64,000 bases of DNA from Candidatus Omnitrophota bacterium (GCA_030632085.1 DAOVJY010000002.1:77325-141324); one strand, 5' to 3'; shown: positions 35,046-51,621, numbered from the stretch's first letter. Numbers and translations are program-made. Notes: generated by a model from the letters alone, not told the origin.

Positions 35046-36380
35046 TTGTCAAAGACATTTAAAGGTGGTATTTTCCTTCCGGAAAATAAGCATTTATCAG
35101 AAACCCTGCCAATAGAAATTATTTCTTTACCGAATAGAGTAATCATTCCTCTTGCATTTTATGGCGGTAAGAAATGTGAACCAAATATAAAAGAGGGTGA
35201 TCGGGTAAGCACCGGCCAGGTGCTTTGCGAACCGCAAGAGCATATATCTACTTTTATCCATTCGAGCATTTCAGGTGTTGTAAGTAAAATTGGAGAATTT
35301 CCTCATCCCGTTCTTAAGAAAAGCTATGGAGTGCTTATTGAGTCTGATGGAAAAGATTTAAAGGGATTTGAGGAGGGTGAAAGAAACTGGCAGAGTTTAT
35401 CAGGTGAAGAAATTATTAAAATTATAAAAGAGGCGGGTGTTGTTGGCTTAGGTGGTGCCGGTTTTCCAACGCACGCGAAATTACGTATTCAGGATAAAAA
35501 ACAAGTTGACGCATTTTTAATTAACTTAATTGAGTGTGAACCATATTTAACGGTTGATTATCGTTTAGCTTTAGAGAGATTTGATGAAATACTATCCGGT
35601 ATTAATATTCTGCTTAAGGTTTTAAGAGCTGAGAAAGCCTATCTGGCGGTTGCTGCCGATAAAAAAGAACTAATAGAGCATTTAAGCGTTAAAACGCGCG
35701 AAAGCAAAAATGTTGAAATAATTACTTTAAAGCATAAGTACCCGCAAGGAGAAGAAAGCCAGTTGATTAAAGCGGCCCTGGGAAGAATTATCCCTAAGGG
35801 CAAATTACCTTGTGATGTAGGAGTTGTGGTTGATAATGTGCAAACTGTTTATGCTGTTTTTGAGGCTGTCTGCCGCAAAAAACCTTTTTATGAAAGAGTT
35901 ATTACCGTTACCGGCCGGGGCATTAAAGAACCCAAGAATTTATTGGTTCGTATTGGCACCAGATTGCAGGACATTATTAATTATTGCGGCGGGTTTCAAG
36001 CTGATAAATTAAGAATAATTTATGGAGGCCCTATGATGGGTGTAGCTCAGGATAATTTAGATATGCCTATTACTAAGGAGACATCCGGTATTATATGCCT
36101 GCCTTTTAATAAAAAAGAAGAAATAAAAGAATCAGCTTGTCTTAGGTGTGGTAGATGTGTTGATGTTTGTCCCAGAAATTTATTACCCCTTGAAATGAAT
36201 AGGCTCATAAAAAATAAAAAATGGGATGAGCTGGAAGCGTATAATATTTCCGAGTGTATGCTTTGCGGTGCTTGTAACTATATTTGTCCGGCTAACATAC
36301 CCTTAGCCGCTAGAATGGCTTTAGGCAAAAGAGCATTAACCAGCATTAAGAAGGTAAGGTCAAGAAAAAATGGCAGCTGA
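35046..36380 (+). CDS. rnfC: Rnf electron-transport complex subunit C
   Basis: GLGGAGFPTHAKL motif and two 4Fe-4S motifs CLRCGRCVDVCP and CMLCGACNYICP. Confidence 0.9.
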   Translation: MSKTFKGGIFLPENKHLSETLPIEIISLPNRVIIPLAFYGGKKCEPNIKEGDRVSTGQVLCEPQEHISTFIHSSISGVVSKIGEFPHPVLKKSYGVLIESDGKDLKGFEEGERNWQSLSGEEIIKIIKEAGVVGLGGAGFPTHAKLRIQDKKQVDAFLINLIECEPYLTVDYRLALERFDEILSGINILLKVLRAEKAYLAVAADKKELIEHLSVKTRESKNVEIITLKHKYPQGEESQLIKAALGRIIPKGKLPCDVGVVVDNVQTVYAVFEAVCRKKPFYERVITVTGRGIKEPKNLLVRIGTRLQDIINYCGGFQADKLRIIYGGPMMGVAQDNLDMPITKETSGIICLPFNKKEEIKESACLRCGRCVDVCPRNLLPLEMNRLIKNKKWDELEAYNISECMLCGACNYICPANIPLAARMALGKRALTSIKKVRSRKNGS

Positions 36381-37305
36381 TTTTATTATATCAGATTCAC
36401 CATATATTCATTCAGGCAAGTCAACTAAAAAAATAATGTTTTTAGTTATGCTTGCTTTACTGCCGGCAATATTTGCCTCTGTATATTACTTTCGCGCGGG
36501 TGCTATATACTTAATTTCCACTTGTGTTATTAGCTGTGTCGTTTTTGAATACCTTATTCGGAAAATACGGCATAAAGAAACAACAATTTATGATTTAAGC
36601 GCGGTTGTGACCGGTATATTAATGGCTTTAATTTTACCTCCTAATTTTCCTTTGGGGGCGGCGGTTGTTGGTTGTTTGGCGGCCGTTTTTTTAGGCAAAG
36701 AGGTTTTTGGCGGCTTAGGCTCAAATATCTTTAATCCGGCATTAGTCGGCAGAGCTTTTTTGATGGCTACATTTCCCGTTTTAACTACTACCTGGTGTGA
36801 ACCATTTAGCCTGCAGGCGGTGACTACAGCTACACCTTTAGGGCTTATGAAATTTCAAAATGTAACAACCGATTTACAATCTTTGTTTTGGGGTAACGTT
36901 TCAGGTTCTCTGGGTGAGACGTCAGCCATCGCTTTACTTTTAGGTGGCATAATTCTCTTGCTATACAGAGTTATCGATTGGAGGATACCTTTTGGTTATA
37001 TAGTTACGGTAGCACTTATTTCCTTGGGCTTTCATTCAGCTAATCCCGCGAGTTACGCGGGCCCTCTTTTTGAAATATTAGCCGGTGGTTTAATTATTGG
37101 AGCTTTTTTTATGGCGTCTGATCCGGTAACTTCTCCTGTAACAAAAAAAGGCAGGTTAATTTTTGGCGCGGGTTGCGGTTTATTAACTATGATTATTAGG
37201 TATTGGGGTGGTTTGCCCGAAGGTGTTATGTATTCAATACTTTTCATGAATGCTCTTAGGCCGCTAATTGATAAGTTTACCCGGCCGATTTGTTTTGGAG
37301 GTTGA
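36370..37305 (+). CDS. rnfD: Rnf complex subunit D
   Basis: Polytopic membrane protein; FMASDPVTSP is the FMN-attachment region of RnfD/NqrB. Confidence 0.9.
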   Translation: MAADFIISDSPYIHSGKSTKKIMFLVMLALLPAIFASVYYFRAGAIYLISTCVISCVVFEYLIRKIRHKETTIYDLSAVVTGILMALILPPNFPLGAAVVGCLAAVFLGKEVFGGLGSNIFNPALVGRAFLMATFPVLTTTWCEPFSLQAVTTATPLGLMKFQNVTTDLQSLFWGNVSGSLGETSAIALLLGGIILLLYRVIDWRIPFGYIVTVALISLGFHSANPASYAGPLFEILAGGLIIGAFFMASDPVTSPVTKKGRLIFGAGCGLLTMIIRYWGGLPEGVMYSILFMNALRPLIDKFTRPICFGG

Positions 37306-37309
37306 TCAT

Positions 37310-37855
37310 ATGAAGCAGAGTTTTAAAATGATATTTTCTCTTTGTTTGATAGCTGTTGTCTCAGCGGTTGTTTTAGCTAAGGTTTACCAGATTACGCAGC
37401 CGGCGATTACAGCTAATGAGAAGAAGGCTACCGAGGTTGCCGTATATAAAGTTGTGAGCGCGGCCAACAGCTACAAAGAAGCTAAAATTGGTGAAATCGA
37501 TATCTTTAAATGTTATGATGAAAATAACAAACTCTGTGGGTTTGCTTTTACCGTTGAGGGAGTAGGTTATCAGGATTTAATTAAAGTTATGGTTGGAGTC
37601 AGTGCTGATTTTAATAAAATATTAGCAATTGAGGTTTTAGAGAATAGTGAAACACCGGGCTTGGGCAATAAGATAGAAACTCCCTGGTTTGAAAATCAAT
37701 TTCAGAATTTAGATCTTCAAAATAAAATAACTGTAGTAAAAGGAGTTCCTCAAAAAAATTCAGAGATACAAGCAATAACGGGGGCAACTATTTCTTCAGA
37801 GGCGGTAGTTGATATTGTTAATAATAAGATTGAAGAACTAAAAAAGTCTAAGTGA
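37310..37855 (+). CDS. rnfG: Rnf complex subunit G
   Basis: N-terminal TM helix; FMN-binding motif ITGATISS. ATG 37310 follows the SD GGAGG. Confidence 0.85.
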   Translation: MKQSFKMIFSLCLIAVVSAVVLAKVYQITQPAITANEKKATEVAVYKVVSAANSYKEAKIGEIDIFKCYDENNKLCGFAFTVEGVGYQDLIKVMVGVSADFNKILAIEVLENSETPGLGNKIETPWFENQFQNLDLQNKITVVKGVPQKNSEIQAITGATISSEAVVDIVNNKIEELKKSK

Positions 37856-37858
37856 TAA

Positions 37859-38485
37859 ATGCGAAAGATTAATGTATTATTTAGTGATTTTATAAAAGGG
37901 CTCTGGCAGGAGAACCCGATATTCCGCCTGCTTATTGGTATGTGTCCTACCTTGGCGGTTACAAGTCAGGTGAAAAATGGTTTAGCTATGGGTTTAGCTA
38001 CCACTTTTACTTTGCTTGCTTCAAGTACAATAATTTCTATATTTAGAAATTTTATTCCAAAAGAAGTTAGAATTCCTTCATATATAGTAATAATTGCTAC
38101 TTTTGTTACTATCGTTTCGCTTTTTTTAAAAGCAAACTTCCCGGAAATAAGTAAAGAATTGGGGCCTTATGTGCCGCTCATTATTGTAAACTGCCTCATC
38201 TTAGGCAGGCAGGAAGCTTTTGCTTCAAAAAATCCTACACATCGGGCTATAGCAGATGCTTTGGGCATGGGAATAGGTTTTACTCTTTCGCTGATAGCCT
38301 TGTCGTCGGTAAGAGAAGTTTTGGGCATGGGGACTCTATTGGGGCATCAGGTAATTTTTGGTAATTTTAGGCCCTGGATTATAATGTTAACTCCACCGGG
38401 AGCTTTTTTAACCTTAGGGTTACTTTTAGGTTTGGTAAATATAATTAATAAGGCCGTTAAAAACAGGAAAAAGAAGAAACAATAA
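37859..38485 (+). CDS. rnfE: Rnf complex subunit E
   Basis: RnfA/E family membrane protein, 208 aa, in the operon order C-D-G-E-A-B. Confidence 0.85.
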   Translation: MRKINVLFSDFIKGLWQENPIFRLLIGMCPTLAVTSQVKNGLAMGLATTFTLLASSTIISIFRNFIPKEVRIPSYIVIIATFVTIVSLFLKANFPEISKELGPYVPLIIVNCLILGRQEAFASKNPTHRAIADALGMGIGFTLSLIALSSVREVLGMGTLLGHQVIFGNFRPWIIMLTPPGAFLTLGLLLGLVNIINKAVKNRKKKKQ

Positions 38486-39073
38486 ATGGTAAAAGAATTA
38501 ATTTTAGTTTTTATCGCCACAGTATTAATAAATAATTTTGTCCTGAAATATTTTTTAGGTATTTGTCCCTTTTTGGGTGTATCTGATAAACTTTCTTCAG
38601 CGATTAGCATGGGGTTCGCGACCACTTTTGTAATGACCATTACCGCTCCGGTCGCCTGGCTGATAAATAATTATATTTTAATTAAATTCGACCTCCCTTT
38701 TTTGCAGTATGTCTGTTTTATTATAGTTATTGCTTCATTGGTTCAATTTGTTGAAATGGTGATAAAAAAGTTTTTTCCTTTACTGCATCAATCAATGGGA
38801 ATTTATTTACCTTTAATAACAACTAATTGCGCGATTCTTTTCATGACATTGCAGTTGGTTTTAAGAGAGTATTCTTTAATTAAAAGTATGGTCTTTGGAT
38901 TTGGTTCCGGAATAGGTTTTACTCTGGCTATAGCTATTATGGCTTCCATTAGAGAAGAACTGGAATTTCGGGATGTACCTGAATCCTTAAAAGGCCCGGG
39001 CATTACTTTAATAATCGCCGGCATTTTAGCTCTTATCTTTGTGGGCTTGGCCGGCTTGATACAGGTTAGATAA
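38486..39073 (+). CDS. rnfA: Rnf complex subunit A
   Basis: RnfA/E family paralog, 195 aa. Confidence 0.85.
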   Translation: MVKELILVFIATVLINNFVLKYFLGICPFLGVSDKLSSAISMGFATTFVMTITAPVAWLINNYILIKFDLPFLQYVCFIIVIASLVQFVEMVIKKFFPLLHQSMGIYLPLITTNCAILFMTLQLVLREYSLIKSMVFGFGSGIGFTLAIAIMASIREELEFRDVPESLKGPGITLIIAGILALIFVGLAGLIQVR

Positions 39074-39076
39074 AAA

Positions 39077-39355
39077 ATGAATATAGTCTTATTGTCAGCG
39101 ATTGTAATGGCTGTGCTGGCTGGAATCCTGGGAGCTATATTAAGTTTCGCGTATAGCAAGCTTAAAGTAGAAGAGGATCCCCGCAGGGAACAGTTGATGG
39201 ACCTTTTGCCGGGAGCTAACTGCGGCGCTTGCGGTGCCGCGAGTTGTGCCGACTTTGCCGATAAATTAATAAAAGGTGAAGCTGATATTTCTAAATGCCG
39301 AATTAGCCTACGTGATGAAGACAATCTGCTCAAGATTAAAGAATTGCTTAAGTGA
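39077..39355 (+). CDS. rnfB: Truncated RnfB-like subunit (TM anchor + N-terminal Fe-S domain only)
   Basis: TM helix and GANCGACGAASCADFADKLIKGEADISKC, the RnfB N-terminal 4Fe-4S domain. The usual tandem ferredoxin domains are absent; the gene ends at the A/C-rich spacer. Confidence 0.7.
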   Translation: MNIVLLSAIVMAVLAGILGAILSFAYSKLKVEEDPRREQLMDLLPGANCGACGAASCADFADKLIKGEADISKCRISLRDEDNLLKIKELLK

Positions 39356-39545
39356 TAATTAGTATTGTAAGTCACAAGACATAAGAAATAAAAAGTTACA
39401 AGACACAAGTCACAAGAGACAAGCAATAGCAAAGAGACAAAAAGCGAAGAGCAAAAAAACAAGAAATAAGAAACAAGTATAAAGTCACAAGTCACATGAC
39501 ACAAGTAAGAAACAAAAAAATAAAAACAAAAGAACATATCTGAAA
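39356..39545 (+). repeat. A/C-rich T-depleted modular intergenic spacer (CACAAG / GTCACAAG / GCGAAGAGC words)
   Basis: About 190 nt, roughly 55% A, with recurring words GTCACAAG (x4), ACAAG (many) and AAGCGAAGAGCAAAAAAACAAG. It shares its vocabulary with the spacers at 34.5, 50.1, 52.7 and 55.8-56.8 kb. Confidence 0.7.
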
Positions 39546-39593
39546 CGCCGCGTATATTATAATTCGGATGTGTCCCTAATTTTAAAAAAGGCT

Positions 39594-39622
39594 TGACAAC
39601 CATTTTGAACAATGGTAAAATA
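39594..39622 (+). promoter_or_regulatory. Sigma-70 promoter TTGACA-N17-TAAAAT upstream of the pyr operon
   Basis: -35 at 39594-39599 and -10 at 39617-39622. It is followed by a ~150-nt leader containing CCAGGAAAGGC, which resembles a PyrR binding loop, and a T-run. Confidence 0.5.
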
Positions 39623-39773
39623 ACTCAAATAATTAAAACCTTTTAACTTGGCACTGTGAGGCCAGGAAAGGCAAAAGATGGAAAAACCATATATACAAAA
39701 TCATAAACCTACTCAGGCAACTGGGTTGGTTATTTTTTTGTCTATTTTTGGCGGTAAAAAAAGGACATAATTT

Positions 39774-40325
39774 ATGAGTAACGATAAGATTAAAATAATT
39801 ATGGATGAAGAGCAGATTAAAAGAGCTCTTATAAGAATCAGCCATGAAATTCTAGAAAAAAACAAAGGTACAAAAGATTTGGCTATTATAGGCATTAGGA
39901 ATCGGGGAGCTTTTTTGGCTGAAAGAATAGCGGCTTTGATTAAAGAGATAGATTCAAAAGAAGTACCCATTGGTATTCTGGATATAACTCTATATCGTGA
40001 CGATTTAACAACCATTGCCTGGCAGCCCGTAGTCCATAAAACCGAGATAGATTTTGACATCGGTGAAAAGAATATTATTTTGGTTGATGATGTGCTTTTT
40101 ACGGGAAGGACCATTAGGTCGGCTCTTGATGCCCTGATTGATTTTGGCAGGCCGGCTAATATTCAGTTAGCTATTTTAGTTGATAGAGGGCATAGAGAGC
40201 TACCCATTAGGGCTGATTATGTAGGTAAGAATGTACCGACTTCGTTGGGTGAGGCGGTTGATGTCCGTTTAGATGAAGTAGATAAAAAAGAAGAAGTGTG
40301 TGTAAGAAAGGTTGATGAGAAATGA
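39774..40325 (+). CDS. pyrR: Pyrimidine operon regulator / uracil phosphoribosyltransferase PyrR
   Basis: PRTase motif [20 protein letters not shown]; 183 aa; first gene of the pyr operon. Confidence 0.9.
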
Positions 40326-41263
40326 AATGGCGGCGAAGAAATTTATTAAGCCTGGAAGATCTTGATAAAGAAGAAATTATCCATATTTTGAACACAACCA
40401 CTTCTTTTAAAGAGATATCTAAAAGGCCCATTAAAAAAGTTCCGGCCTTGAGAGGCAAAACAATAGCAACTTTATTCTTAGAGCCCTCAACCAGGACCAG
40501 AGCATCTTTTGAATTGGCGGCTAAGCGTCTTTCGGCTGATGTGGTCAGCATTTATTCTTCAAGCAGCTCAATCTTAAAAGGAGAAACTCTAAGAGATACC
40601 GCCCGCAATATTGAAGCTATGAATATAGATGCCATAATCATAAGGCATTCCTCGAGCGGTTCTCCGCTTGTATTATCAAGATATGTTAAAGTACCTGTGA
40701 TTAATGCCGGCGACGGGTCTCATGAGCACCCAACACAGGCTCTACTTGATATTTACACAATTAGAGAAAAGAAGAAAAACCTTAAAGGCTTAAAGGTGAG
40801 TATTATCGGAGATATACTGCATTCAAGAGTAGCCAGAAGTAATATCTGGGGTTTGAGTAAGCTTGGGGCTAAAGTCTGCGTTTGCGGCCCGGCTACTTTA
40901 CTACCGTCTGAGATTGAAAAATTGCCTACAAAAGTAACTTATAAAATAGATGAAGCTTTAAAAGACGCTGATGTTGTAATTACTCTGAGAATCCAGCTTG
41001 AGAGGCAAAAAGATAAGTTCTTTCCTTCCTTACGAGAGTATGCCAGAGAGTATGGCCTCAACAGTCAAAATATAAAGCTAGCTAAAAAGGATGTTCTTGT
41101 AATGCATCCGGGGCCCATTAATCGCGGCATTGAGTTATCACAGGAGGTTGCCGACGGCCCCCATTCGGTAATACTGGAGCAGGTAACTAACGGCGTGGCT
41201 GTGCGCATGGCCGTTTTATACCTTCTTTTGCAAAAGGAGGGAAAAAATGAATCTGCTAATTAA
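40322..41263 (+). CDS. pyrB: Aspartate carbamoyltransferase catalytic subunit
   Basis: [13 protein letters not shown] and HPGP motifs. Confidence 0.9.
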
Positions 41264-42530
41264 AGGAGCCAGACTTATAAGCCCGGTCGACAACCTGGAT
41301 AAAGAGCAGGATGTCCTTATTGAAAAAGGGTTAATAAAAAAGATAGCCAAAGGCATAAAAGATCCTAAAGCGAAAGTTATTGAAGCCAAAGGAAAAATTG
41401 TATCTCCGGGATTAATTGATATGCACACTCACCTAAGAGAGCCCGGCAGGGAAGATAAAGAAACTCTTTATACCGGCGCCAGGGCAGCCGTAAGAGGAGG
41501 TTTTACTTCTATAGCGTGCATGGCTAATACCGATCCTCCTCTGGATAGTGAGCAGGATATGGAGTTTGTATTGAGCGAAGCTAAAAAGATTAGCCTGATT
41601 GATATACTGCCCATAGGAGCCGTAACGCTTAAGATGGAACAAAAGCAGTTAACTGAAATTGCCAAACTCAAAAAAGCCGGAGCGGTCGCTCTTTCTGAAG
41701 ATGGGCATACTATTTTGGATAGTAATTTTTTCAGGCGAGCCTTGGAATACGCGAACATGTATGACTTGATTGTAATTTGTCATTGTGAGGATAGTTATCT
41801 TGCCAATGGCGGACAGATAAATGAAGGGTATATGAGTACGCTTTTAGGCCTAAAAGGAATTCCGAATGAAGCTGAGAGTATTATTGTCTCCAGAGATATA
41901 AGCTTAGCTCGCGTTGCCAATGCCCGGATTCATATAGCTCATGCCAGCACTAAAGAATCAATTGATTTAATAAGGCAGGCTAAGAAAGAAAAAATAAAAA
42001 TAACAGCTGAAACCTGCCCGCATTATTTCTTGCTATCGGATGAAGATTTAAAAAATTACAACACTAATTTAAAAGTCAACCCGCCGCTTAGGGCTAAAAA
42101 AGATATAGAAGCCGTAAAAGAAGCTTTAGCTGACGGCACTATTGATATAATTAGTTCCGATCACGCTCCTCATTTAGAGAGCGAAAAAGATTTGGAGTTT
42201 AATAAAGCTCCCTTTGGAATGATTGGCCTGGAAACCAGCCTGGCGGCTTCATTTAAGTTGGTGGAAGATAAGACGCTGAAAATAGAAGAATTGATAATTA
42301 AGATGGCCTCAAAGGCAGCTGAGATATTCAATTTAAAGGCCGGAACAATTAAAGAGGGAGCCTTTGCTGATTTAACTATCATTAATCCCGCGAGCCCCTG
42401 GCGGGTAAAGAGAGAGGAGTTTGAGTCAAAGAGCTCTAACTCTCCTTTTATAGGTAATGAATTTAACGCCAGAGTAGAGGCGGTTGTTTCTAAGGGTAGA
42501 GTTGTGATGGAGAATTTCAAAATTGTTTAA
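41247..42530 (+). CDS. pyrC: Dihydroorotase
   Basis: [10 protein letters not shown] metal-binding motif and amidohydrolase fold; 427 aa. Confidence 0.85.
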
Positions 42531-42551
42531 CTTTTTACAAGGAGGCGCGTT

Positions 42552-42842
42552 GTGATGAAAAAGTTTTTTTATGTTTTGCTTGTTTTAATATGTATTAGTT
42601 TTATATTAACGGTTCAGGGATGTAATTTTTCCAAAAATTCCACCGGTAATAGGCAGTTAGCCGGTAAGCAAAAAGTTCAGGCTGAAGATTGGCTGCACAG
42701 TGCTGACCTTCTGTATAATGTAAAAGATTATAGCTTCGCGCTTGAATATTATAAGAAGGTTGTAAAATATTATCCGGGAACCAAGTACGCGTCTGAAGCC
42801 CAAAAGAAAATGGATGAAATTCAGAGCACAAAGATCAATTAG
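42552..42842 (+). CDS. Small secreted/lipoprotein with a single TPR-like unit
   Basis: Signal peptide with Cys at position 24; YNVKDYSFALEYYKKVVKYYPGTKYASEAQ; inserted within the pyr operon. Confidence 0.4.
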   Translation: MMKKFFYVLLVLICISFILTVQGCNFSKNSTGNRQLAGKQKVQAEDWLHSADLLYNVKDYSFALEYYKKVVKYYPGTKYASEAQKKMDEIQSTKIN

Positions 42843-42848
42843 CCAAAA

Positions 42849-44081
42849 ATGGAAGTAGTTGTTGATTTTCACATACATTCTAAGTATTCCAGAGCTACAA
42901 GCAAAAATATGGATGTTGAGCATTTGAGTTCGGCCGCGAAGATTAAAGGTATTGATTTAATTGGAACAGGTGATTTTACTCATCCTCAATGGCTCCTTGA
43001 ATTAAAAAGTGGTTTATCTGAAGCCGCGCCCGGTATATACGAAGGCAACGGAACACATTTTGTTCTATCCGCGGAAGTAAACAACATTTATACTAAAACG
43101 CAAAAGTCACGCCGCGTCCATAATCTCCTCATAGCTCCAAATTTTAAAGTGGTTGAAGAGATAAATAAAGCCTTAAGTGAATACGGAGACCTTTTTGCCG
43201 ATGGCAGGCCGATACTTAAACTCGATGCCAAGAAAATGCTTATAATTTTGAGGTCAATAAGCCATGATATATATGTGATTCCGGCTCATTTATGGACACC
43301 CTGGTTCGGGCTTCTGGGTTCGGTAACCGGTTTTAATTCCGTAGAAGAGTGTTTTGAAGAGGAAACAGATAACATTTACGCCGTAGAAACCGGACTAAGC
43401 AGCGACCCGGCTATGAATTGGAGATTAAGTAAATTGGATAAGTTTTGTTTAATATCAAATTCCGACGCCCATTCTCCAAAGAATTTAGGCCGCGAAGTGA
43501 ATATATTTGATTGTGAAATTGATTATTACAAAATAATGGATATTATAAAAAAACGAAACAATAATAAATTTCTTTATACGGTTGAATTTTTCCCTCAAGA
43601 GGGTAAATATCATTATGATGGACACAGGGCTTGTAATCAATGCCTTAGCCCAAAAGAGACTATAAAAAATAATTATAAATGCCCCGTTTGTAAAAAAAAA
43701 GTAACTGTAGGCGTGATGCACAGGGTTGAGGAACTGTCTGATAGGGAGGAAGGTTTTAAAGATAAAAAGTTTATACCTTTTAAGAATATAATCCCTCTGC
43801 GTGAGATTATATCAGAAGCCAAGCAAGTGGGTGTAGACACAAAGGCGGTTCAAACTGAATATAATTATATAATTTCAAGGGCGGGTACGGAATTTGAAGC
43901 TTTACTTAAAAAGTCTAAGGAAGAATTAAAAACTTTTTGCAGCCCTAAAGTAGCAAAAGGGATTATAAGAGTTAGAAACGCCCAGGTGGATATTCATCCC
44001 GGCTATGATGGTGAGTATGGTAAAATAAATATCTTCAACGACGAGGATTCAAATAAAGATAAGCAGCTTACTTTGTTTTAA
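42849..44081 (+). CDS. PHP-domain nuclease with C-terminal zinc ribbon, Endonuclease Q-like
   Basis: N-terminal PHP signature VVDFHIHSKYSRATS...GIDLIGTGDFTHPQW; C-terminal CNQC...CPVCKKK. Size and architecture match EndoQ (TIGR00375-like). Confidence 0.6.
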   Translation: MEVVVDFHIHSKYSRATSKNMDVEHLSSAAKIKGIDLIGTGDFTHPQWLLELKSGLSEAAPGIYEGNGTHFVLSAEVNNIYTKTQKSRRVHNLLIAPNFKVVEEINKALSEYGDLFADGRPILKLDAKKMLIILRSISHDIYVIPAHLWTPWFGLLGSVTGFNSVEECFEEETDNIYAVETGLSSDPAMNWRLSKLDKFCLISNSDAHSPKNLGREVNIFDCEIDYYKIMDIIKKRNNNKFLYTVEFFPQEGKYHYDGHRACNQCLSPKETIKNNYKCPVCKKKVTVGVMHRVEELSDREEGFKDKKFIPFKNIIPLREIISEAKQVGVDTKAVQTEYNYIISRAGTEFEALLKKSKEELKTFCSPKVAKGIIRVRNAQVDIHPGYDGEYGKINIFNDEDSNKDKQLTLF

Positions 44082-44106
44082 AGGGATTAAATTACAAGGA
44101 GAAACA

Positions 44107-45126
44107 ATGAAGAAAGCGTACTTGGTTTTAGAAAACGGCGAGGTTCTGGAAGGTAATTCCTTTGGGGCAAAAAAAGAGGTTGTCGGACACGTGGTTTTTA
44201 ATACGAATATGATGGGTTACCAGGAAGTTATAACCGATCCCGCTTATGCTGACTGCCTGGTAGTTATTACATACCCGCTTATCGGGGCTTGCGGAGTAAA
44301 TGAGAATGATCATAACTCTCATATCGGCGCGGCGAGAGGATTAATTATAAAAGAATATTCGCGAACAGTTTCAAACTGGCAGGCGAGTATGAGCTTGGAA
44401 GATTTCATGAAGAAAAAAGGTATTGTCGGAATTGAGGGAGTTGACACAAGATATTTGACAAGACACGTTGTAAATAGCGGTATTCAAAAAGGGATGATAA
44501 CTAACACAAAAAACAATATTAAATCTCTTTTAAAAAAAATGCGGCAACATAAAGAAGACAGGCTCTATAAAAAAGTTAGCTGTAAGAAAGCTTATAATTG
44601 GGCCGCGAATAAAAAAGCAAAAAAAACCGCCGTAGTTCTTGATTATGGAGTTACTTTCAACCTTTTAAACTGGCTTTCAGAGCAAGATTTTAAGGTGAAG
44701 GTACTGCCGGCAGATACAATTTCTGATAAAATATTAAAGGAAAAAGCGGACTTAATTGTTCTATCAAACGGGCCCGGCAGTCCGCTTGAAGCTAAAAAAG
44801 AAGTTGATAATATCAGTAAACTGCTAGGTGAAAAACCTATTATTGCTTTCGGTTTAGGCAGCTGCTTTCTTGCTATTGCCTTGGGAGCTAAAGTAGAGGC
44901 ATTAAAGTCAGGCCATTACGGTTTCAATAAGGCGATTAAAGATTTAAGGGCCAATAAAGTTTATATAACGCAGCAAGATCACCGTTTTGCCGTTAATAAA
45001 GATTCTTTACCAAAAGAAACCGAATTAATAAGTATTAATTTACACGATGATACACTTGAGGCTTATTCAAATAAGAAGTTTAAGGCGGCGGGTTATTGTT
45101 ATTTACCAACTACAATAAATATTTAA
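44107..45126 (+). CDS. carA: Carbamoyl-phosphate synthase small subunit, with a divergent glutaminase active site
   Basis: The CPSase small-chain N-domain (VVFNTNMMGYQEVITDPAYADCLVVITYPLIG) and a GATase-like C-domain (IVLSNGPGSP). The catalytic motifs GxCLGHQ and HPE are replaced by GLGSCFLA and a C-terminus lacking HPE. Confidence 0.8.
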   Translation: MKKAYLVLENGEVLEGNSFGAKKEVVGHVVFNTNMMGYQEVITDPAYADCLVVITYPLIGACGVNENDHNSHIGAARGLIIKEYSRTVSNWQASMSLEDFMKKKGIVGIEGVDTRYLTRHVVNSGIQKGMITNTKNNIKSLLKKMRQHKEDRLYKKVSCKKAYNWAANKKAKKTAVVLDYGVTFNLLNWLSEQDFKVKVLPADTISDKILKEKADLIVLSNGPGSPLEAKKEVDNISKLLGEKPIIAFGLGSCFLAIALGAKVEALKSGHYGFNKAIKDLRANKVYITQQDHRFAVNKDSLPKETELISINLHDDTLEAYSNKKFKAAGYCYLPTTINI

Positions 45127-45146
45127 ATTAAAGGAGACATACTTTT

Positions 45147-48100
45147 ATGCCAAGAAGAGACGACCTTAAAAAAATATTGATTATCGGTTCCGGCCCTATT
45201 GTAATCGGGCAGGCATGCGAATTTGATTATTCAGGATCTCAGGCCTGCAAAGTTTTAAAAGAGGAAGGATATAAAATAATTTTAATTAACTCAAATCCGG
45301 CTACTATTATGACCGATCCGCAGATGGCTGATAAAACTTATATTGAACCCATTACTCCCGAAGTTATAACTGAAATTATTAAAAAAGAAAGGCCCGACGC
45401 CTTACTTCCTACGCTAGGAGGGCAAACAGGGCTTAATATGGCCTATTTTTTAGATAAGATGGGGGTTTTGAAAAAATATTCAGTAGAAGTCCTCGGCGCT
45501 AATATTGACGCTATCGCCAAGGCGGAGGATAGGGATATTTTTAAAAAGACTATGAAGTCCATAGGTGTTAAAGTTCCCAAAAGCGGTATTGCCCGCTCAA
45601 TTGAGGAAGGTTTTAAGCTGGCTAAAAAAATCGGATTTCCTTTATTATTGAGGCCGGCTTTTTGTTTAGGCGGAGCCGGGGCCGCGTGTGTTTATAACTC
45701 CGAAGAGTTGGAAGCGGCTTTGCAGCTTGCAATTGATACTTCTCCCATAAAAGAGGTTTTAGTGGAAGAGTCTGTGTTAGGGTGGAAAGAAATAGAATTT
45801 GAAGCTATGAGAGACTGTGAAGATAATATTGTTATTGTTTGCTCAATGGAAAATATTGACCCCATGGGGGTGCACACCGGAGATAGCATGGTTGTAGCTC
45901 CGGCTCAAACTATAACAGCTAAAGAATGTGCCAAGTTAGTTGAAGATTCAAAAAAAGTAATTAGAGCTGTTAATATTACCGGAGGAGGTATGAATTTACA
46001 GTACGGTGTAAATCCGGATAATGGAAAGTCGGTAATTATTGAAATAAATCCGAGGGTTTCGCGTTCATCCGCCCTGGCTTCAAAGGCCACAGGCTTTCCT
46101 ATAGCCAGAGTAGCCACAAAATTAGCTGTGGGTTATACCCTGGATGAAGTTGTAAATGATGTTACGGGCAATACTACAGCTTTCTTTGAGCCCTCAATTG
46201 ATTATTGTGTTTTTAAAATGCCCCGTTTTACTTTTGAAAAATTTCAGAAGGCGGACTGGTCGCTAGGTATATCCATGAAAGCTGTGGGTGAATCTATGTC
46301 CATCGGCAGAAACTTTAAAGAAGCTCTTCAAAAGGGTTTAAGGTCATTAGAAACCGGCCGTTACGGCTTGGGAGCTGACGGTAAAGATGTTTTGGATAAA
46401 AACTTATCAAAGAAAGAAAAAATAGAAGAAATAAAAGAAAAACTTAAAATAGCTAACGCGGATAGAATTTTCTACGTAAAAGAAGCCTTTAATCATGGTT
46501 TGGATATTGACGCGATATATGAACTATCTAAAATAACTAAATGGTTTCTAAGTAATATTAAAGAATTAGTTGATTTAGAGAAGAAAATAAAATCCGGTAA
46601 ATGCTCTAAAGAGGTTTTAATAAAAACTAAAGAATTCGGTTATAGCGATGTTCAGTTAGCTCACATGTTAAAAAAGAGCCTAAAGCAAGTCAGATTCTTG
46701 AGGAAAAAGTTGATAAAACCTGTTTATAAACTGGTTGATACCTGCGCGGGTGAATTTAATTCATCCAGGCCTTATTTTTATTCATCTTATGGAGAAAAAG
46801 ATGAAAGTAGAGCCACTAAAGCTAAAAAAGTTATTATTTTAGGCGGTGGGCCAAATAGGATAGGGCAAGGTATTGAATTTGATTACTGTTGTTGTCACGC
46901 GGCCTATGCTTTAAAAGAAATTGGCTATGAGTCGGTAATCATTAATTCAAATCCGGAAACCGTATCAACCGATTATGATACTTCAGATAGGCTTTACTTT
47001 GAACCTCTTACGCTGGAGGATGTTCTTAATGTTATCGATAAAGAGAAGCCTTATGGAGTTATAGTTCAATTAGGAGGGCAGACGCCTCTAAATATTTCTA
47101 AAGAACTGGAAGCGGCGGGCGTAAAAATATTGGGTACATCTGCCGATAAGATTGATATCGCCGAAGATAGAGATCGTTTCAAAAAATTACTTCATAAGTT
47201 AAAATTAAAGCAACCCAATAACGCGACCGCGACAAATTTAAGAGAAGCCCAGAAAATAGCATCAAAAATTGGATATCCGGTAGTCGTTAGGCCTTCATAT
47301 GTTTTAGGCGGCAGGGCGATGGAAATTGTCTATGATGAGGCATCATTAGAACGCTATATGAGAGAGGCGGTAATAGCTTCAAGTGAACATCCGATATTAA
47401 TAGATAAGTTTTTGGAAGATGCTATTGAGGTTGATGTTGATATGATTTCAGACGGTAAGACGCAGGTTGTTGGCGGTATTATGGAACATATAGAAGAGGC
47501 CGGTGTCCATTCGGGAGATAGCGCGATGGTTTTACCGCCATTCAGCCTTAAGAAAGAGTTAGTGGACAAAATAAAAGATTACTCTCATAAACTAGCCAAG
47601 GAACTTAAGGTTATAGGACTTATGAATGTGCAGTATGCCATAAAGAATGATGAGATATATATTCTGGAGGTTAATCCCAGGGCATCCAGAACAATACCCT
47701 TTATATCTAAGTCTATAGGTATACCATTAGCTAAACTGGCCACTAAGGTTATGGTTGGGATGAGTTTAAAGGAGTTAGGTTTTACTAAGGATATAACCCC
47801 CAAACACATAAGCGTAAAAGAGTCTGTTTTTCCTTTTATGAGATTTCCGGGGGTAGACATTATTCTTGGGCCGGAAATGAAGTCTACCGGTGAAGTTATG
47901 GGTATTGATTATGATTTCGGCAAAGCATTTATAAAGTCTCAGATAGCAGCCGGTCAAATCCTGCCTAAAAAAGGTAGAGTCTTTATAAGCGTGAAAGATA
48001 AAGATAAAAATAAAATTATTGACGCCGCAAAAAAACTTCAGAAGCTGGGCTTTAAGCTTATAGCTACGAAAGGAACTGCTGTGAGCCTTAAAGAAGCCGG

Positions 48101-48371
48101 GGTAAAAGTAAAAAAGGTTTATAAACTTCATGAAGGCAGGCCCCATATAGTCGATTTAATTAAAAGCGATGAAATAAATTTAGTAATTAATACTCCTAGC
48201 GGCAAAGGGCCCAAAGAAGATGAGATAAAAATCAGGACTAGCGCTTTGTTGCATAAAATTCCCGTGATTACAACTGTACCGGGAGCAATAGCGTCAGTCA
48301 GCGGTATTGAGGCGCTAAAAAAAGGTAAGTTAAAAATAAAAGCACTACAAGATTATAATAAAGAGATATAA
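45147..48371 (+). CDS. carB: Carbamoyl-phosphate synthase large subunit
   Basis: 1074 aa with duplicated ATP-grasp halves, an oligomerisation domain and a C-terminal MGS-like domain. Confidence 0.95.
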   Translation: MPRRDDLKKILIIGSGPIVIGQACEFDYSGSQACKVLKEEGYKIILINSNPATIMTDPQMADKTYIEPITPEVITEIIKKERPDALLPTLGGQTGLNMAYFLDKMGVLKKYSVEVLGANIDAIAKAEDRDIFKKTMKSIGVKVPKSGIARSIEEGFKLAKKIGFPLLLRPAFCLGGAGAACVYNSEELEAALQLAIDTSPIKEVLVEESVLGWKEIEFEAMRDCEDNIVIVCSMENIDPMGVHTGDSMVVAPAQTITAKECAKLVEDSKKVIRAVNITGGGMNLQYGVNPDNGKSVIIEINPRVSRSSALASKATGFPIARVATKLAVGYTLDEVVNDVTGNTTAFFEPSIDYCVFKMPRFTFEKFQKADWSLGISMKAVGESMSIGRNFKEALQKGLRSLETGRYGLGADGKDVLDKNLSKKEKIEEIKEKLKIANADRIFYVKEAFNHGLDIDAIYELSKITKWFLSNIKELVDLEKKIKSGKCSKEVLIKTKEFGYSDVQLAHMLKKSLKQVRFLRKKLIKPVYKLVDTCAGEFNSSRPYFYSSYGEKDESRATKAKKVIILGGGPNRIGQGIEFDYCCCHAAYALKEIGYESVIINSNPETVSTDYDTSDRLYFEPLTLEDVLNVIDKEKPYGVIVQLGGQTPLNISKELEAAGVKILGTSADKIDIAEDRDRFKKLLHKLKLKQPNNATATNLREAQKIASKIGYPVVVRPSYVLGGRAMEIVYDEASLERYMREAVIASSEHPILIDKFLEDAIEVDVDMISDGKTQVVGGIMEHIEEAGVHSGDSAMVLPPFSLKKELVDKIKDYSHKLAKELKVIGLMNVQYAIKNDEIYILEVNPRASRTIPFISKSIGIPLAKLATKVMVGMSLKELGFTKDITPKHISVKESVFPFMRFPGVDIILGPEMKSTGEVMGIDYDFGKAFIKSQIAAGQILPKKGRVFISVKDKDKNKIIDAAKKLQKLGFKLIATKGTAVSLKEAGVKVKKVYKLHEGRPHIVDLIKSDEINLVINTPSGKGPKEDEIKIRTSALLHKIPVITTVPGAIASVSGIEALKKGKLKIKALQDYNKEI

Positions 48372-48372: not shown

Positions 48373-49152
48373 ATGTATCAAGAAAAAGCCACGGTTTTAG
48401 AAAATAAAAAAATAACTTCTCAGTGCTACATGTTACAGCTTCGCGCGAAGAATATTGCCAGAGAGGCTCAGCCGGGGCAGTTTCTTCATATTAGAATTTC
48501 TAATAAGAACCAAAAACCTTTTCTAAGAAGGCCTTTCGCGGTACATAACACGGAAAATAAAAATGAATTCAGTCTTCTTTATAAGATGCGGGGAGAGACG
48601 ACTAAATTGATGCGCGAACTTAAAAAAGGTGATAAAATTGATGTTATCGGCCCCTTGGGTTCCGGTTTTAATCCTTCTCATGAGGCACAAAAATATGTTT
48701 TAGTTGCCGGAGGCATTGGTTTGGCACCTTTATTTTTTCTGGCGAAAAAACTTGCAGATGATAAAAAAGAAGTTATCTTTGTCTGTGGAGCCGGAACAAA
48801 AAATGAATTGCTTTGCGCAAAAGAACTATCACAAATAAAAATAAAACCTGTCTTGGCAACCGATGACGGTTCGCGAGGAATAAAAGGGAGTGTTAACGAT
48901 TTGTTAAATAATTATTTGACTAAAAACAGAAAAGATAAAATTGAGGTGTTTGCCGCGGGCCCCGGAATGATGCTAAAGGAAGCGGCTCGAATTTGTAAAA
49001 AAGCCGGAGTGCGCCTGGAAGTCAGTATGGATGAGATTATGGCTTGCGGCGTGGGAGTTTGTTTGGGTTGCGCGGTAAAAACTAAAAACGGTTATAAGCT
49101 GGCCTGTAAAGATGGGCCTGTCTTTAAAGCAGAGGATATCGTATGGGCGTAG
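48373..49152 (+). CDS. pyrK: Dihydroorotate dehydrogenase electron-transfer subunit
   Basis: FAD/NAD-binding fold and C-terminal 2Fe-2S motif CGVGVCLGCAV. Confidence 0.85.
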   Translation: MYQEKATVLENKKITSQCYMLQLRAKNIAREAQPGQFLHIRISNKNQKPFLRRPFAVHNTENKNEFSLLYKMRGETTKLMRELKKGDKIDVIGPLGSGFNPSHEAQKYVLVAGGIGLAPLFFLAKKLADDKKEVIFVCGAGTKNELLCAKELSQIKIKPVLATDDGSRGIKGSVNDLLNNYLTKNRKDKIEVFAAGPGMMLKEAARICKKAGVRLEVSMDEIMACGVGVCLGCAVKTKNGYKLACKDGPVFKAEDIVWA

Positions 49153-50057
49153 ACTTAGCGGTAAAAATCGGTAAATTAACACTTAAAAATCCGGTAATGG
49201 TTTCCTCGGGGACATTTGGTTGCGGTGAGCAATACGAGGAGTTGGTTGACTTAAAAGAACTGGGAGCTATCACAACCAAGACAATTACTTTACGAGAAAG
49301 AGAAGGTAATAAGCCTCCGAGGATAGCTGAGACTTATGCCGGCATGTTAAATGCTATTGGATTGGAGAATAAAGGTTTGAATTATTTCTGTGATACTACC
49401 CTTAAATATTTGAATTCTATTAAGACACCGTACATTGTTAGTGTTGCCGGAGAAGAAGAAAAGGATTACAGTAAATTGATAAAAGCGCTTGATAAGTTAA
49501 ATATTGAAGCTATAGAGCTTAATATATCCTGTCCGAATGTCAAATCAAAGAAAAAACGCATGTTTTCTCAGGATGCTCAAGATACATTTAAACTGGTTTC
49601 CAAGGTAAGAAAATTAACCAAGGCGACATTAATCGTTAAACTTTCACCTAATGTAACCGATATTAAAGAAATAGCTTTAGCTGCCCAGGACGCGGGAGCC
49701 GAAGCGGTTTCTTTAGTTAATACTTTTTTAGGAATGGCCATTGATGTTCATAGCAGAAAACCTAAATTAGGTAATATTACCGGCGGACTAAGCGGCCCGG
49801 CCATAAAACCTCTCGCGCTGCGAATGGTTTATGAAGCGGCAAATTGTTTGAAGATTCCGGTTATTGGCCAGGGTGGTATAATGTCACCTGAAGACGGTTT
49901 AGAATTTATTTTAGCAGGTGCCACGGCAATATCAATTGGTACGGCAAATTTTATTGAGCCGCAAAGCGCTATCTTAATTAAAAAAGGTATTGAAAAATAT
50001 TTAATAAAGAATAAAATAAAAAGTATAAAACAATTACGTGGCACCATTATCAGCTAA
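49143..50057 (+). CDS. pyrD: Dihydroorotate dehydrogenase catalytic subunit (class 1B)
   Basis: NPVMVSSGTFG, ITTKTIT and NISCPN motifs. Confidence 0.9.
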   Translation: MGVDLAVKIGKLTLKNPVMVSSGTFGCGEQYEELVDLKELGAITTKTITLREREGNKPPRIAETYAGMLNAIGLENKGLNYFCDTTLKYLNSIKTPYIVSVAGEEEKDYSKLIKALDKLNIEAIELNISCPNVKSKKKRMFSQDAQDTFKLVSKVRKLTKATLIVKLSPNVTDIKEIALAAQDAGAEAVSLVNTFLGMAIDVHSRKPKLGNITGGLSGPAIKPLALRMVYEAANCLKIPVIGQGGIMSPEDGLEFILAGATAISIGTANFIEPQSAILIKKGIEKYLIKNKIKSIKQLRGTIIS

Positions 50058-50263
50058 CAGCAAAGAGATAAGGGCTAATAGCTGATGGCTGATGGCTGAT
50101 GGCAAAGAGCAAAAAAACAAAACAAAAGAGCAAAAAAACAAACAAGAAACAAAACACAAGTACAAAGTCACAAGTTATACCCTTGCAGGGCACAGGCAAG
50201 ACACAAGCAAAAAACAAAAAAAACAAGATACAAGTACAAAGACATAAGTTGGAAGAGGGAGAA
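50058..50263 (+). repeat. A/C-rich T-depleted modular intergenic spacer
   Basis: TCAGCTAACAG, (GCTGATG)x3, AAAGAGCAAAAAAACAAA x2, CAAGTACAAAG x2 and the motif TTATACCCTTGCAGGGCACAGGCAAG. It lies between pyrD and pyrF. Confidence 0.7.
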
Positions 50264-50989
50264 ATGAAAGAAAAATCAAAAATAATATTGGCTTTAGATG
50301 TAGATACCTTAAAAGAAGCGCAAAGCATTATTAAGGATACAAAAAAGTATATAGATATATACAAGGTCGGCCCGCACTTATTTACGAAATACGGCCCTCA
50401 GATTATTAAACTTATTCGTAAAAGTAAAAAAGAAGTTTTTTTAGATTTAAAGCTGCATGACATTCCCAATACGGTTGCGAGTTCCGTGAAGCAGATAACC
50501 CGTTTAAAGGTTTACATGCTTACTTTGCATACTTCAGGCGGCCTTAAGATGCTTCGTGAAGCTAAAAAGGCGGCCGTAAGTGAAGCAAAGAAATTAAAAT
50601 TAAGAACTCCCATACTTTTAGGAGTAACCGTTTTATCCAGTTTCCAAAAGAAAGATTTAAAACAAATAAATATAAATTTAACAATTAAGGAGCAGGTTTT
50701 ATCGTTATTTAATTTGGCCCAGCGGGCTAATCTCGGTGGAGTTGTTTTATCCGCCAAAGAATTAAGTTATATTAATAAAATTAAAAAAAAGAAGTTGCTC
50801 AGAGTTGTTCCGGGTATCAGGCCAAGAGGGTGCAAAAAAGATGACCAGAAACGTACAATGGCTCCCAATGAAGCAGTCCGACAGGGTGCTGACTTTTTGG
50901 TTATAGGCCGGCCGATAATAAAGGCGCCTTCGGTAAAAAAAGCGGCTATGGCTATTTCGAAGGAGATTAACGGGGATTATGACAAATAA
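50264..50989 (+). CDS. pyrF: Orotidine 5'-phosphate decarboxylase
   Basis: KIILALDV and DLKLHDIPNTV motifs. ATG 50264 with SD GGAAGAGGGAG is preferred; the upstream K/Q-rich extension in the ORF track is a translation of the spacer. Confidence 0.85.
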   Translation: MKEKSKIILALDVDTLKEAQSIIKDTKKYIDIYKVGPHLFTKYGPQIIKLIRKSKKEVFLDLKLHDIPNTVASSVKQITRLKVYMLTLHTSGGLKMLREAKKAAVSEAKKLKLRTPILLGVTVLSSFQKKDLKQININLTIKEQVLSLFNLAQRANLGGVVLSAKELSYINKIKKKKLLRVVPGIRPRGCKKDDQKRTMAPNEAVRQGADFLVIGRPIIKAPSVKKAAMAISKEINGDYDK

Positions 50990-51557: not shown

Positions 51558-51593
51558 ATAAACTACCCGATTATTCATAAATCTAATCACTTG

Positions 51594-51621
51594 ACAGACT
51601 TATCTTACCTTGTATAATGAA
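51594..51621 (+). promoter_or_regulatory. Sigma-70 promoter TTGACA-N16-TATAAT upstream of the yicC leader
   Basis: -35 at 51594-51599 and -10 at 51616-51621; it predicts a ~175-nt 5' leader. Confidence 0.55.

Follow-up and report, generated by a model that had tools for sequence, protein, structure and literature searches.

The DNA analysed here, referred to as the window, is a 64,000-nucleotide stretch from a Candidatus Omnitrophota bacterium (GCA_030632085.1, DAOVJY010000002.1:77325-141324). Within it, positions 42552-44081 lie between pyrC and carA of a pyrimidine biosynthesis (pyr) operon and are filled exactly by two + strand open reading frames (ORFs). The product of the larger, endoQ, is a bacterial protein of the endonuclease Q (EndoQ) family in its stand-alone form, and the smaller encodes a probable lipoprotein. 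We consider it highly probable that this EndoQ is tethered to the replication clamp, nicks DNA 5' of deoxyuridine (dU), deoxyinosine (dI) and abasic (AP) sites, and is made from the pyr transcript under attenuation by PyrR. The features of the pair are as follows, with amino acids (aa) numbered from the start of each protein and the EndoQ of Pyrococcus furiosus (PfuEndoQ) as reference.

42552-42842, + strand: small exported protein, probably a lipoprotein, with a signal peptide, a VQG/C site and a helical hairpin resembling tetratricopeptide repeats (TPR) and BamD-YbgF
42849-44081, + strand: endoQ, endonuclease Q family protein of 410 aa, from sequence, profile, homolog, residue-mapping and fold evidence; PHP two-metal nuclease domain at ~aa 1-248, Zn-binding domain at ~aa 249-313, C-terminal helical domain at ~aa 314-398, then a disordered tail
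43623-43691, + strand: putative zinc-knuckle ligands H259-x2-C262 ... C278-x2-C281 of EndoQ, aligned with C249, C252, C268 and C271 of PfuEndoQ
44064-44078, + strand: C-terminal pentapeptide QLTLF of EndoQ (aa 406-410), a putative beta-sliding-clamp-binding motif

A phmmer search of all PDB sequences matches the 410-aa protein to PfuEndoQ over its full length at 33-35% identity (5zb8, E 3.4e-55, aa 4-396 against 4-383; 7k30, E ~3e-55). The NCBIfam model TIGR00375 is also spanned in full (E 5.6e-60). A search of 5.8 billion proteins gave at least 8000 matches, of which the best 120 were examined. These are 54-92% identical to the window protein, all carry PF27218 in precomputed tables, and they are labelled by NCBI as 'endonuclease Q family protein' of Candidatus Omnitrophota, or as 'DNA helicase UvrD' in older records. 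The protein itself therefore adds a member to an established family, and public records already give it this name by automatic annotation. A Pfam-A scan of the 410-aa protein returned no family at E 0.01 or better, which says nothing on novelty because PF27218 is listed for every homolog in the precomputed tables.

The predicted fold agrees with this assignment. An AlphaFold2 model built with 32 homologs reached a mean predicted local distance difference test score (pLDDT) of 88.5 and a predicted template modelling score (pTM) of 0.88. Foldseek placed the model closest to PfuEndoQ, both apo and DNA-bound, among PDB entries (5zb8, E 3.6e-37; 7k30, E 4.7e-33), and this predicted model superimposes on 5zb8 with template modelling (TM) scores of 0.86/0.88 and a root mean square deviation of 2.6 Å over 398 aligned columns. 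The best PHP proteins outside the family (PsfC, TM0559, RNase AM, BAD_1165) were found at E 2e-6 or worse with TMq ≤0.37, so that EndoQ outranks other PHP phosphoesterases by ~30 orders of magnitude in Foldseek E. The initial annotation had proposed an EndoQ architecture and named an unrelated PHP phosphoesterase as the competing best match. The PHP, Zn-binding and C-terminal helical domains, together with the full-length match to PfuEndoQ at TM 0.86-0.88, bear out the former, and the ranking of the structural matches speaks against the latter.

The residues required for catalysis and lesion recognition in PfuEndoQ, as defined by structure and mutagenesis (PMC5961232), can be followed into the window protein. 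All PHP metal ligands are present, as had been asked of the His/Asp set: H8, H10, E76, H84, H139 and D193 of PfuEndoQ correspond to H8, H10, E76, H91, H147 and D206, and these six are invariant in alignments A1 and A3. The essential R114 and H195 are found as R120 and H208, both invariant. The lesion pocket is made up of T150, E180, G182, L183 and N204 (T142, E167, G169, L170 and N191 in PfuEndoQ), with H147 and D206 also contributing, and the wedge residue W144 is kept as W152. The sole change in the pocket is from L168 to T181, at a position that touches the base via the main chain. In the C-terminal domain K320 and Y377 are kept as K332 and Y390. At the proposed Zn-finger four potential ligands are present but do not form a four-cysteine (C4) site, H259 replacing the first Cys. 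Among 32 bacterial-type homologs no variation is seen at H259, C262, C278 and C281, while the extra C265 of the window protein is not conserved, and the bacterial clade probably carries a His-Cys3 zinc site.

PfuEndoQ (5ZB8, 7K30-7K33), which belongs to the archaeal 'family 1', therefore shares the three-domain architecture of the window protein at a similar length (424 aa against 410 aa), and in each the C-terminal tail is disordered and closes with a peptide of the sliding-clamp type, a putative one in the window protein. They differ in the first zinc ligand, which is His and not Cys in the window protein, in a 7-residue insertion after E76, and in the terminal peptide, which resembles the beta-clamp type (QLTLF) in the window protein and a PCNA-interacting protein (PIP) box in PfuEndoQ. 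The hosts differ as well, P. furiosus being a hyperthermophile and the window host a mesophilic-type low-GC member of the Omnitrophota in which endoQ lies in a pyr operon that is probably PyrR-controlled. Bacterial EndoQ, including that of Bacillus pumilus, is treated under 'families 2 and 3' (Shiraishi et al. 2017, cited by PMC5961232 and PMC6202378). The B. pumilus enzyme reportedly nicks at dU, dI and AP sites like the archaeal enzyme, which supports the transfer of function to bacterial homologs. By analogy, the 410-aa protein would be a lesion-specific DNA repair endonuclease, with the substrate and cleavage chemistry of its homologs.

Bacterial pentapeptides that bind the beta clamp follow the consensus QL[S/D]LF. 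The C-terminal QLTLF of the window protein resembles this consensus and is read here as a putative beta-sliding-clamp-binding peptide. It ends a segment that is disordered in the AlphaFold2 model (residues 399-406, before and into the motif), and alignment A3 shows no variation at Q406 or F410. Of the 84 distinct homologs from the fetched loci, 66 have Q-x-x-L-F at the C-terminus or at most two residues from it, against 3 of 1061 other ORFs of the same loci, and the pattern across homologs is Q-[L/M]-[T/S]-L-F. In PfuEndoQ the C-terminal PIP motif binds PCNA, which stimulates the enzyme (PMC5961232, PMC4858679), and the PIP box reads QRTLLQYI (PMC5961232). Two bacterial-type EndoQs that are 52% identical to the window protein (L048 6690-7922 and L060 2407-3618, where L numbers designate individual loci) are found on contigs labelled Micrarchaeota, with an Orc1/Cdc6 gene adjoining endoQ on both. 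Their tails are PIP-box-like (QRGLGEYL and QKSLDEFF) and not QxxLF. The tail of EndoQ seems to follow the clamp type of the host, which supports a clamp-tethered role in repair.

Further support for a repair role comes from the architecture of distant relatives. HMMER, run exhaustively against 1.84 billion cluster representatives (50% identity), identified 986 EndoQ homolog clusters at E ≤1e-30 and 2312 at E ≤1e-10. Among the 150 best-scoring representatives the majority are 1000-1200 aa long with the EndoQ part N-terminal, and a UvrD/REP helicase lies C-terminal to it in all four of the fusions scanned (P0121, P0123, P0124, P0141). Together with UvrD neighbours in three loci, these fusions support a role in DNA repair by nicking followed by unwinding, and they are the probable source of the name 'DNA helicase UvrD' in older records of stand-alone homologs. 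The window protein is of the stand-alone form, in contrast to the many bacterial homologs that are fused to UvrD.

The operon in which endoQ is placed, with its control elements, is composed of the following.

39593-39621, + strand: sigma-70-like pyr operon promoter, TTGACA-17-TAAAAT with extended TG, 11/12 consensus positions, from a pattern match only
39635-39739, + strand: putative PyrR-binding leader/attenuator, Rfam RF00515, full model 1-115
39711-39726, with a T-run to 39739, + strand: terminator-like hairpin directly before pyrR
39774-40325, + strand: pyrR, bifunctional pyr operon regulator/uracil phosphoribosyltransferase (NF003549, 249 bits, cut-off 138)
40322-41263, + strand: pyrB, aspartate carbamoyltransferase (NF002032, 420 bits, cut-off 263)
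41247-42530, + strand: pyrC, dihydroorotase (TIGR00857, 431 bits, cut-off 279)
44107-45126, + strand: carA (pyrAA), carbamoyl-phosphate synthase small subunit (TIGR01368, 324 bits, cut-off 307)
45147-48371, + strand: carB (pyrAB), carbamoyl-phosphate synthase large subunit (NF003671, 1647 bits, cut-off 599)
48373-49152, + strand: pyrK, dihydroorotate dehydrogenase B electron-transfer subunit (PF10418; NF000798, 206 bits, just under the cut-off of 219)
49143-50057, + strand: pyrD, dihydroorotate dehydrogenase, 1B type (NF005574, 386 bits, cut-off 269)
50264-50989, + strand: pyrF, orotidine monophosphate decarboxylase, likely start ATG 50264, 241 aa (NF001273, 242 bits, cut-off 193)
50979-51557, + strand: pyrE, orotate phosphoribosyltransferase, the last operon gene (TIGR01367, 193 bits, cut-off 150)

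The order is thus pyrR-B-C-[lipoprotein-endoQ]-carA-carB-pyrK-D-F-E. The two ORFs occupy the interval between pyrC and carA, where they had been placed from the outset and where the flanking genes are named by TIGR00857 and TIGR01368. The remainder is of the Bacillus type, as first described, in that its nine regulatory and biosynthetic genes follow the order of the B. subtilis pyr operon (pyrR-pyrP-pyrB-pyrC-pyrAA-pyrAB-pyrK-pyrD-pyrF-pyrE) with pyrR first and a putative RF00515-type site and terminator in the 5' leader. It lacks pyrP and has two added genes between pyrC and carA. One attenuator was detected in the window operon, in contrast to the three of the B. subtilis operon.

Recognisable signals for transcription are found 5' of the operon and not around endoQ. 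The promoter-like site at 39593-39621 is the best on the + strand upstream of the operon and ranks in the top two for the + strand of 38.9-52 kb, and the RF00515 match sits exactly between it and pyrR, with no second RF00515 match in 39300-45300. Leaders of related operons carry the same element directly 5' of pyrR, with RF00515 scoring 56.5 bits in L030, above the gathering threshold, and giving full-length matches of 41.7-51.5 bits in L013, L006, L003, L015 and L031. Gaps are short, at 21 nucleotides (nt) between pyrC and the small ORF, 6 nt between the small ORF and endoQ, and 25 nt between endoQ and carA, and no convincing + strand terminator was found between pyrC and carA. Because a promoter and attenuator lie 5', the gaps are short, and neither recognisable transcription signals of its own nor a convincing internal terminator accompany endoQ, the most economical reading of the sequence is that endoQ is co-transcribed with the pyr genes under PyrR control.

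The position of endoQ is shared by relatives of the window among GTDB species genomes, JGI contigs and metagenome contigs, as the initial annotation had suggested should be checked. The scan of one genome per GTDB species covered 80 EndoQ loci, 46-92% identical to the window protein. In 20 of these pyrR-pyrB-pyrC lies directly 5' of endoQ, a further three begin at endoQ and run on into pyrK or carA, and two are partial (L017, with pyrF-pyrE 9 kb upstream, and L057, with only carB downstream). All of these linked or partial loci bear the label Omnitrophota or, where the assembly is a third-party one, 'uncultured Planctomycetia' or 'bacterium'. None of the 55 loci from other phyla (Patescibacteria, Nitrospirota, Thermodesulfobacteriota, WOR-3, Bipolaricaulota, Aerophobetes and others) has a pyr gene within 10 kb. 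Among the 105 immediate neighbours of endoQ in these 55 loci no Pfam family occurs in more than four loci, the commonest being DUF498 (4), HIT (4), UvrD (3), FtsZ (3) and HD (3).

On JGI contigs with EndoQs 81% and 65% identical to that of the window, the order rnf-pyrR-B-C-small ORF-endoQ-carA-carB-pyrK-D-F-E-yicC is the same as in the window. A more distant JGI relative (EndoQ 58% identical) has pyrR-B-C-endoQ-tRNA-SLOG-Fpg-PEMT-pyrK-TauE-pyrD-pyrF. The gap between pyrC and endoQ is 8-21 nt in ten species. Genes 5' of pyrR fall into 12 homology groups across the linked loci, and those 3' of endoQ into up to seven groups by a crude gene call, with carA, pyrK or tRNA-Arg(CCG)/SLOG next.

A second sample, anchored on pyrC and unbiased regarding EndoQ, consisted of 80 metagenome contigs without taxon labels. 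It yielded nine further endoQ-linked loci. In a neighbour-joining (NJ) tree of pyrC, 30 linked loci form one clade with the unlinked L105 and L116 beside it, the linked L035, L036 and L046 branch apart from the main clade, and the 52 other EndoQ-free loci fall elsewhere. With loci placed by this tree and by the marker genes SLOG, Fpg, PEMT and TauE, the pyrC-endoQ junction is kept in 33 of the 35 clade members. An NJ tree of EndoQ puts the pyr-linked proteins in one half, with WOR-3, Aerophobetes and Micrarchaeota interspersed and deep nodes unresolved. Both are quick NJ trees without support values, and the pyrC tree is the cleaner of the two. L105 (SLOG, PEMT, TauE) and L116 (SLOG, Fpg) keep markers of an Omnitrophota subclade described below and have SLOG directly after pyrC, with endoQ gone; they appear to be losses of endoQ from the conserved site.

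The position of endoQ is thus an ancient one, specific to a clade and ancestral to a large Omnitrophota group, and its retention is strong without being absolute. A recent insertion was considered and is rejected on composition like that of the flanks, deep synteny and a ratio of nonsynonymous to synonymous substitution (dN/dS) like that of pyrC. The term 'inserted', which the initial annotation applied to both genes, is consequently misleading for endoQ and holds for the small lipoprotein, a lineage-specific addition. The GC content of the pair is 0.33-0.41, equal to the surroundings.

The small ORF encodes 96 aa from GTG 42552, although ATG 42555, which lies 7 nt past AGGAGG and would give 95 aa, is the likelier start. 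Its orthologs are found only in L001-L006 and L009, where EndoQ is at least 65% identical to that of the window, and are 85%, 77% and 38% identical. A Cys after the hydrophobic N-terminus is kept in the three ortholog variants (VQGC, VQGC and GLSC), the lipoboxes being non-canonical. The protein had been described as a small secreted TPR protein; its N-terminus is signal-peptide-like and followed by the Cys, and the TPR assignment is weak. Its matches to TPR_2 (E 6e-4), TIGR03302 (YfiO/BamD, E 1.7e-7) and YbgF TIGR02795 all fall under curated cut-offs. Two dN/dS estimates for each gene were 0.11 and 0.06 for endoQ, 0.28 and 0.09 for the small gene, and 0.11 and 0.04 for pyrC, and these small values indicate that endoQ and the small gene are both under purifying selection. 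The small lipoprotein gene is thus a real gene and a later lineage-specific addition without evident tie to EndoQ. Other Omnitrophota have nothing at this site or a Mut7-C RNase gene. The latter (PF01927, 151-155 aa) lies between pyrC and endoQ at L015 3702-4169 (E 4.5e-42), L033 9065-9523 and L046 9549-10004.

From the above, a sequence of steps can be proposed for the window EndoQ. A deaminated or missing base (dU, dI or an AP site) would be flipped into the rigid pocket, and the two-metal PHP active site would cleave the strand immediately 5' of the lesion. The flexible QLTLF tail may tether the enzyme via the beta clamp to replicating or newly replicated DNA, as the archaeal PIP box does with PCNA. 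The nick could then be carried to completion by Pol I, encoded at 19604-22297 of the window, through nick translation. As endoQ would be made from the same PyrR-controlled transcript as the enzymes of uridine monophosphate (UMP) synthesis, its level would be expected to follow pyrimidine demand and growth. The placement would have been fixed in the ancestor of a large Omnitrophota clade and kept while both flanks were repeatedly rearranged, with the lipoprotein added later. Co-transcription, PyrR control and clamp binding are all inferred here from sequence.

Several points weigh against this account. The TIGR00375 score of 203.7 bits is under the equivalog cut-off of 326.6, which is why the protein is read as belonging to a diverged bacterial EndoQ subfamily rather than as a non-member. 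The zinc site is His-first where that of PfuEndoQ is C4, and no assayed member of the exact subfamily was found. The clamp-binding role depends on the resemblance of a putative motif to the QL[S/D]LF consensus. In the leader, RF00515 scores 40.7 bits against a gathering threshold of 54 (E 0.0037 in a 6-kb scan). DNA as AT-rich as this has many weak promoter-like matches, so that pyrC or the lipoprotein gene may harbour an internal promoter. Under PyrR, expression goes up with pyrimidine shortage, a direction that is no simple match to 'more dUTP, more repair'. At least two Omnitrophota-type operons (L105, L116) are without endoQ at the site, and in L057 the pyr genes 5' of endoQ are gone, which makes the linkage dispensable, and operon inertia can conserve a position without functional coupling.

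The last of these points leads to the alternative that survives best, to which we give a chance somewhat short of even. A genuine repair nuclease may have landed once behind pyrC, where its place has no regulatory meaning, possibly with a weak internal promoter of its own, and have persisted as a frozen accident since an essential operon with closely packed genes seldom tolerates breakpoints within it. In essence the trait is confined to one clade and may be a single event, and EndoQ has no preferred neighbours outside that clade. Unrelated genes ride in these operons too (the lipoprotein, Mut7-C RNase, PEMT, TauE and a tRNA), endoQ has been lost at the site in L105 and L116 or kept without pyrRBC in L057, and promoter-like matches are frequent in AT-rich DNA. 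Such an accident sits poorly with the many breakpoints tolerated directly 3' of endoQ (with carA, pyrK or tRNA-Arg/SLOG next) and those tolerated 5' of pyrR (12 neighbour groups), between which the junction survives in 33 of 35 clade members. The gaps of 8-21 nt leave no space for an intergenic promoter, and in one subclade a second base-damage repair gene (fpg/nei) is embedded among the pyr genes.

A metabolic function is very improbable. A PHP phosphoesterase acting on a pyrimidine nucleotide, small molecule or RNA, whether a nucleotidase or an RNase AM-like enzyme, would explain a place among the genes of UMP synthesis in an otherwise purely metabolic operon. PHP nucleotidases and RNases exist, RNase AM and TM0559 are among the distant Foldseek matches, and no Pfam-A family was matched at E 0.01 or better. 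Other PHP enzymes, however, match the PHP core only (TMq ≤0.37), whereas the window protein keeps the EndoQ architecture whole, with its Zn-binding domain, DNA-binding C-terminal domain, wedge Trp and base pocket, in addition to its clamp-type tail motif and homologs fused to UvrD helicases.

Some phages use dU-containing DNA, which EndoQ cuts, and the pair looked like an insertion relative to the Bacillus operon with a lineage-specific lipoprotein, yet the idea that the two genes are a recently acquired cassette against uracil-containing or base-modified phage DNA is hardly credible and is largely refuted by phylum-wide synteny: the position is kept across a deep clade with EndoQ identity down to ~50% and dN/dS equal to that of pyrC, composition is as in the flanks, no repeats, integrase or tRNA boundary occur at the site, neither protein has a PADLOC match at E 0.01 or better, and the clamp motif points to action on the cell's own replicating DNA.

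Returning to the proposed clamp-tethered EndoQ made from the pyr transcript, the meaning of its co-expression must be considered separately. The initial annotation suggested that co-transcription could link the dUTP/uracil burden to the supply of pyrimidines. This is plausible, as the attenuator, the lack of an internal terminator and the deep conservation fit it, but a neutral frozen position fits equally. Some selection on the linkage is favoured by the survival of the junction, the presence of fpg among the pyr genes of one subclade and a loose parallel in Escherichia coli. Purely as a hypothesis, co-expression might be adaptive by matching the capacity for uracil and deamination repair to de novo pyrimidine flux or to replication rate. 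A stronger form, which we regard as unlikely, is that uracil and deamination repair in Omnitrophota is deliberately slaved to PyrR, so that EndoQ, with Fpg in one subclade, is supplied in fixed proportion to UMP synthesis. Were this so, a possible reason would be the absence of dUTPase and/or uracil-DNA glycosylase from these small-genome bacteria. The amount of dUMP incorporated would then rise with pyrimidine flux, and removal of uracil at the fork would fall mainly to clamp-tethered EndoQ. We know of no other DNA-repair enzyme under a nucleotide-pool-sensing RNA attenuator. If adaptive, the arrangement would tie nucleotide-pool sensing to the repair of base lesions. If not, it would still be a clean synteny marker for Omnitrophota and a case of a repair gene locked long-term in a biosynthetic operon.

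The parallel in E. coli K-12 concerns the region 3810343-3822051 (L089), which reads mutM-rpmG-rpmB-yicR-dfp(coaBC)-dut-slmA-pyrE-rph-yicC-dinD-yicG-ligB-gmk. In the window pyrE is followed at 51801-54783 by yicC-gmk-coaC-coaB, with coaBC split in two ORFs, so that much the same neighbourhood is found in both. That of E. coli holds dUTPase and Fpg/MutM, but its genes are in separate transcription units and sanitation there is by dUTPase rather than EndoQ. In the 64-kb window coaB is followed by pilin ORFs and not by dut. The adjoining of genes for pyrimidine synthesis, uracil sanitation and base-damage repair in both E. coli and the window region is only suggestive.

The locus also bears on how EndoQ is viewed in bacteria. 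EndoQ has so far been treated as an archaeal, mostly thermophile enzyme (PMC5961232, PMC6202378), and its bacterial occurrence has been described as confined to 'a limited number of bacteria' (PMC5961232, PMC6202378). In contrast, the relatives of the window protein amount to 986 clusters at 50% identity (E ≤1e-30) and at least 8000 clusters at 90%, spread over Omnitrophota, Patescibacteria, Nitrospirota, Thermodesulfobacteriota, WOR-3 and others, and the locus thus belongs to a very large bacterial EndoQ radiation. This breadth was not found described in the searchable literature, nor were an EndoQ embedded in a PyrR-controlled operon across a phylum-level clade or a beta-clamp-type EndoQ tail with a PIP counterpart in archaeal hosts. 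No paper in that literature contains both Omnitroph* and 'endonuclease Q', nothing relevant was returned for TIGR00375, MJ0043 or PF27218, and the main text of a comparative paper on PyrR regulons is without gene-level detail (PMC3766115).

One Omnitrophota subclade has a modified operon in which a SLOG cluster-4 (LOG-like) gene, fpg/nei, a PEMT-like methyltransferase gene and sometimes a TauE-like gene lie between endoQ and pyrK (L007, L010, L011, L014, L020, L027, L029, L057, L121, L129, L140, L148, L156). At that point some of these loci carry a half-size carB (~520-534 aa, with CPSase_L D1/D2 and MGS) and others a full-length carB. The second base-damage repair gene, fpg, encodes formamidopyrimidine-DNA glycosylase and lies between the half-size carB and pyrK. 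All nine subclade loci scanned have a tRNA-Arg(CCG) gene 3' of endoQ and in the same orientation, mostly directly after it, and they include L057, which is without pyrRBC. The positions of this gene are given by locus.

tRNA-Arg(CCG), same strand as endoQ: L007 9426-9500; L010 11311-11382; L011 7255-7326; L014 11185-11256; L020 11092-11164
tRNA-Arg(CCG), same strand as endoQ: L027 11715-11786; L029 6696-6769; L033 10796-10870; L057 11754-11827

Within the window operon, the mechanically called pyrF ORF (50099-50989, 296 aa) is probably over-extended through an A-rich spacer, having a Lys-rich N-terminus. The ATG at 50264 is preceded by GGAAGAGGGAG, pyrF products in relatives are 234-236 aa, and the pyrD/pyrF gap in L001 is 4 nt. 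After pyrE, a promoter-like site matching 12/12 consensus positions at 51591-51618 would serve the next gene, yicC. A-rich low-complexity spacers at 39360-39530, 50058-50263, 56125-56136 and 56685-56710 share the word AAAGTCACAAGT, which occurs five times on the + strand (≤1 mismatch) where 0.3 occurrences would be expected. One copy precedes the pyr promoter, another is located between pyrD and pyrF, and the remaining three flank tRNA genes. The word looks like a dispersed intergenic repeat. A short tandem repeat of GCTGATG is found at 50076-50100.

All sizeable called genes of the window (1-64000) are on the + strand, except for a doubtful 269-aa ORF at 38803-39612 that overlaps rnf genes and the spacer. 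In addition to the pyr region, the window contains a type IV pilus/type II secretion system cluster (~1-19 kb), polA (19604-22297), folD, metF and an rnf operon (35046-39355), as well as three tRNA genes (55994-56661) and a 6S RNA (63261-63415).

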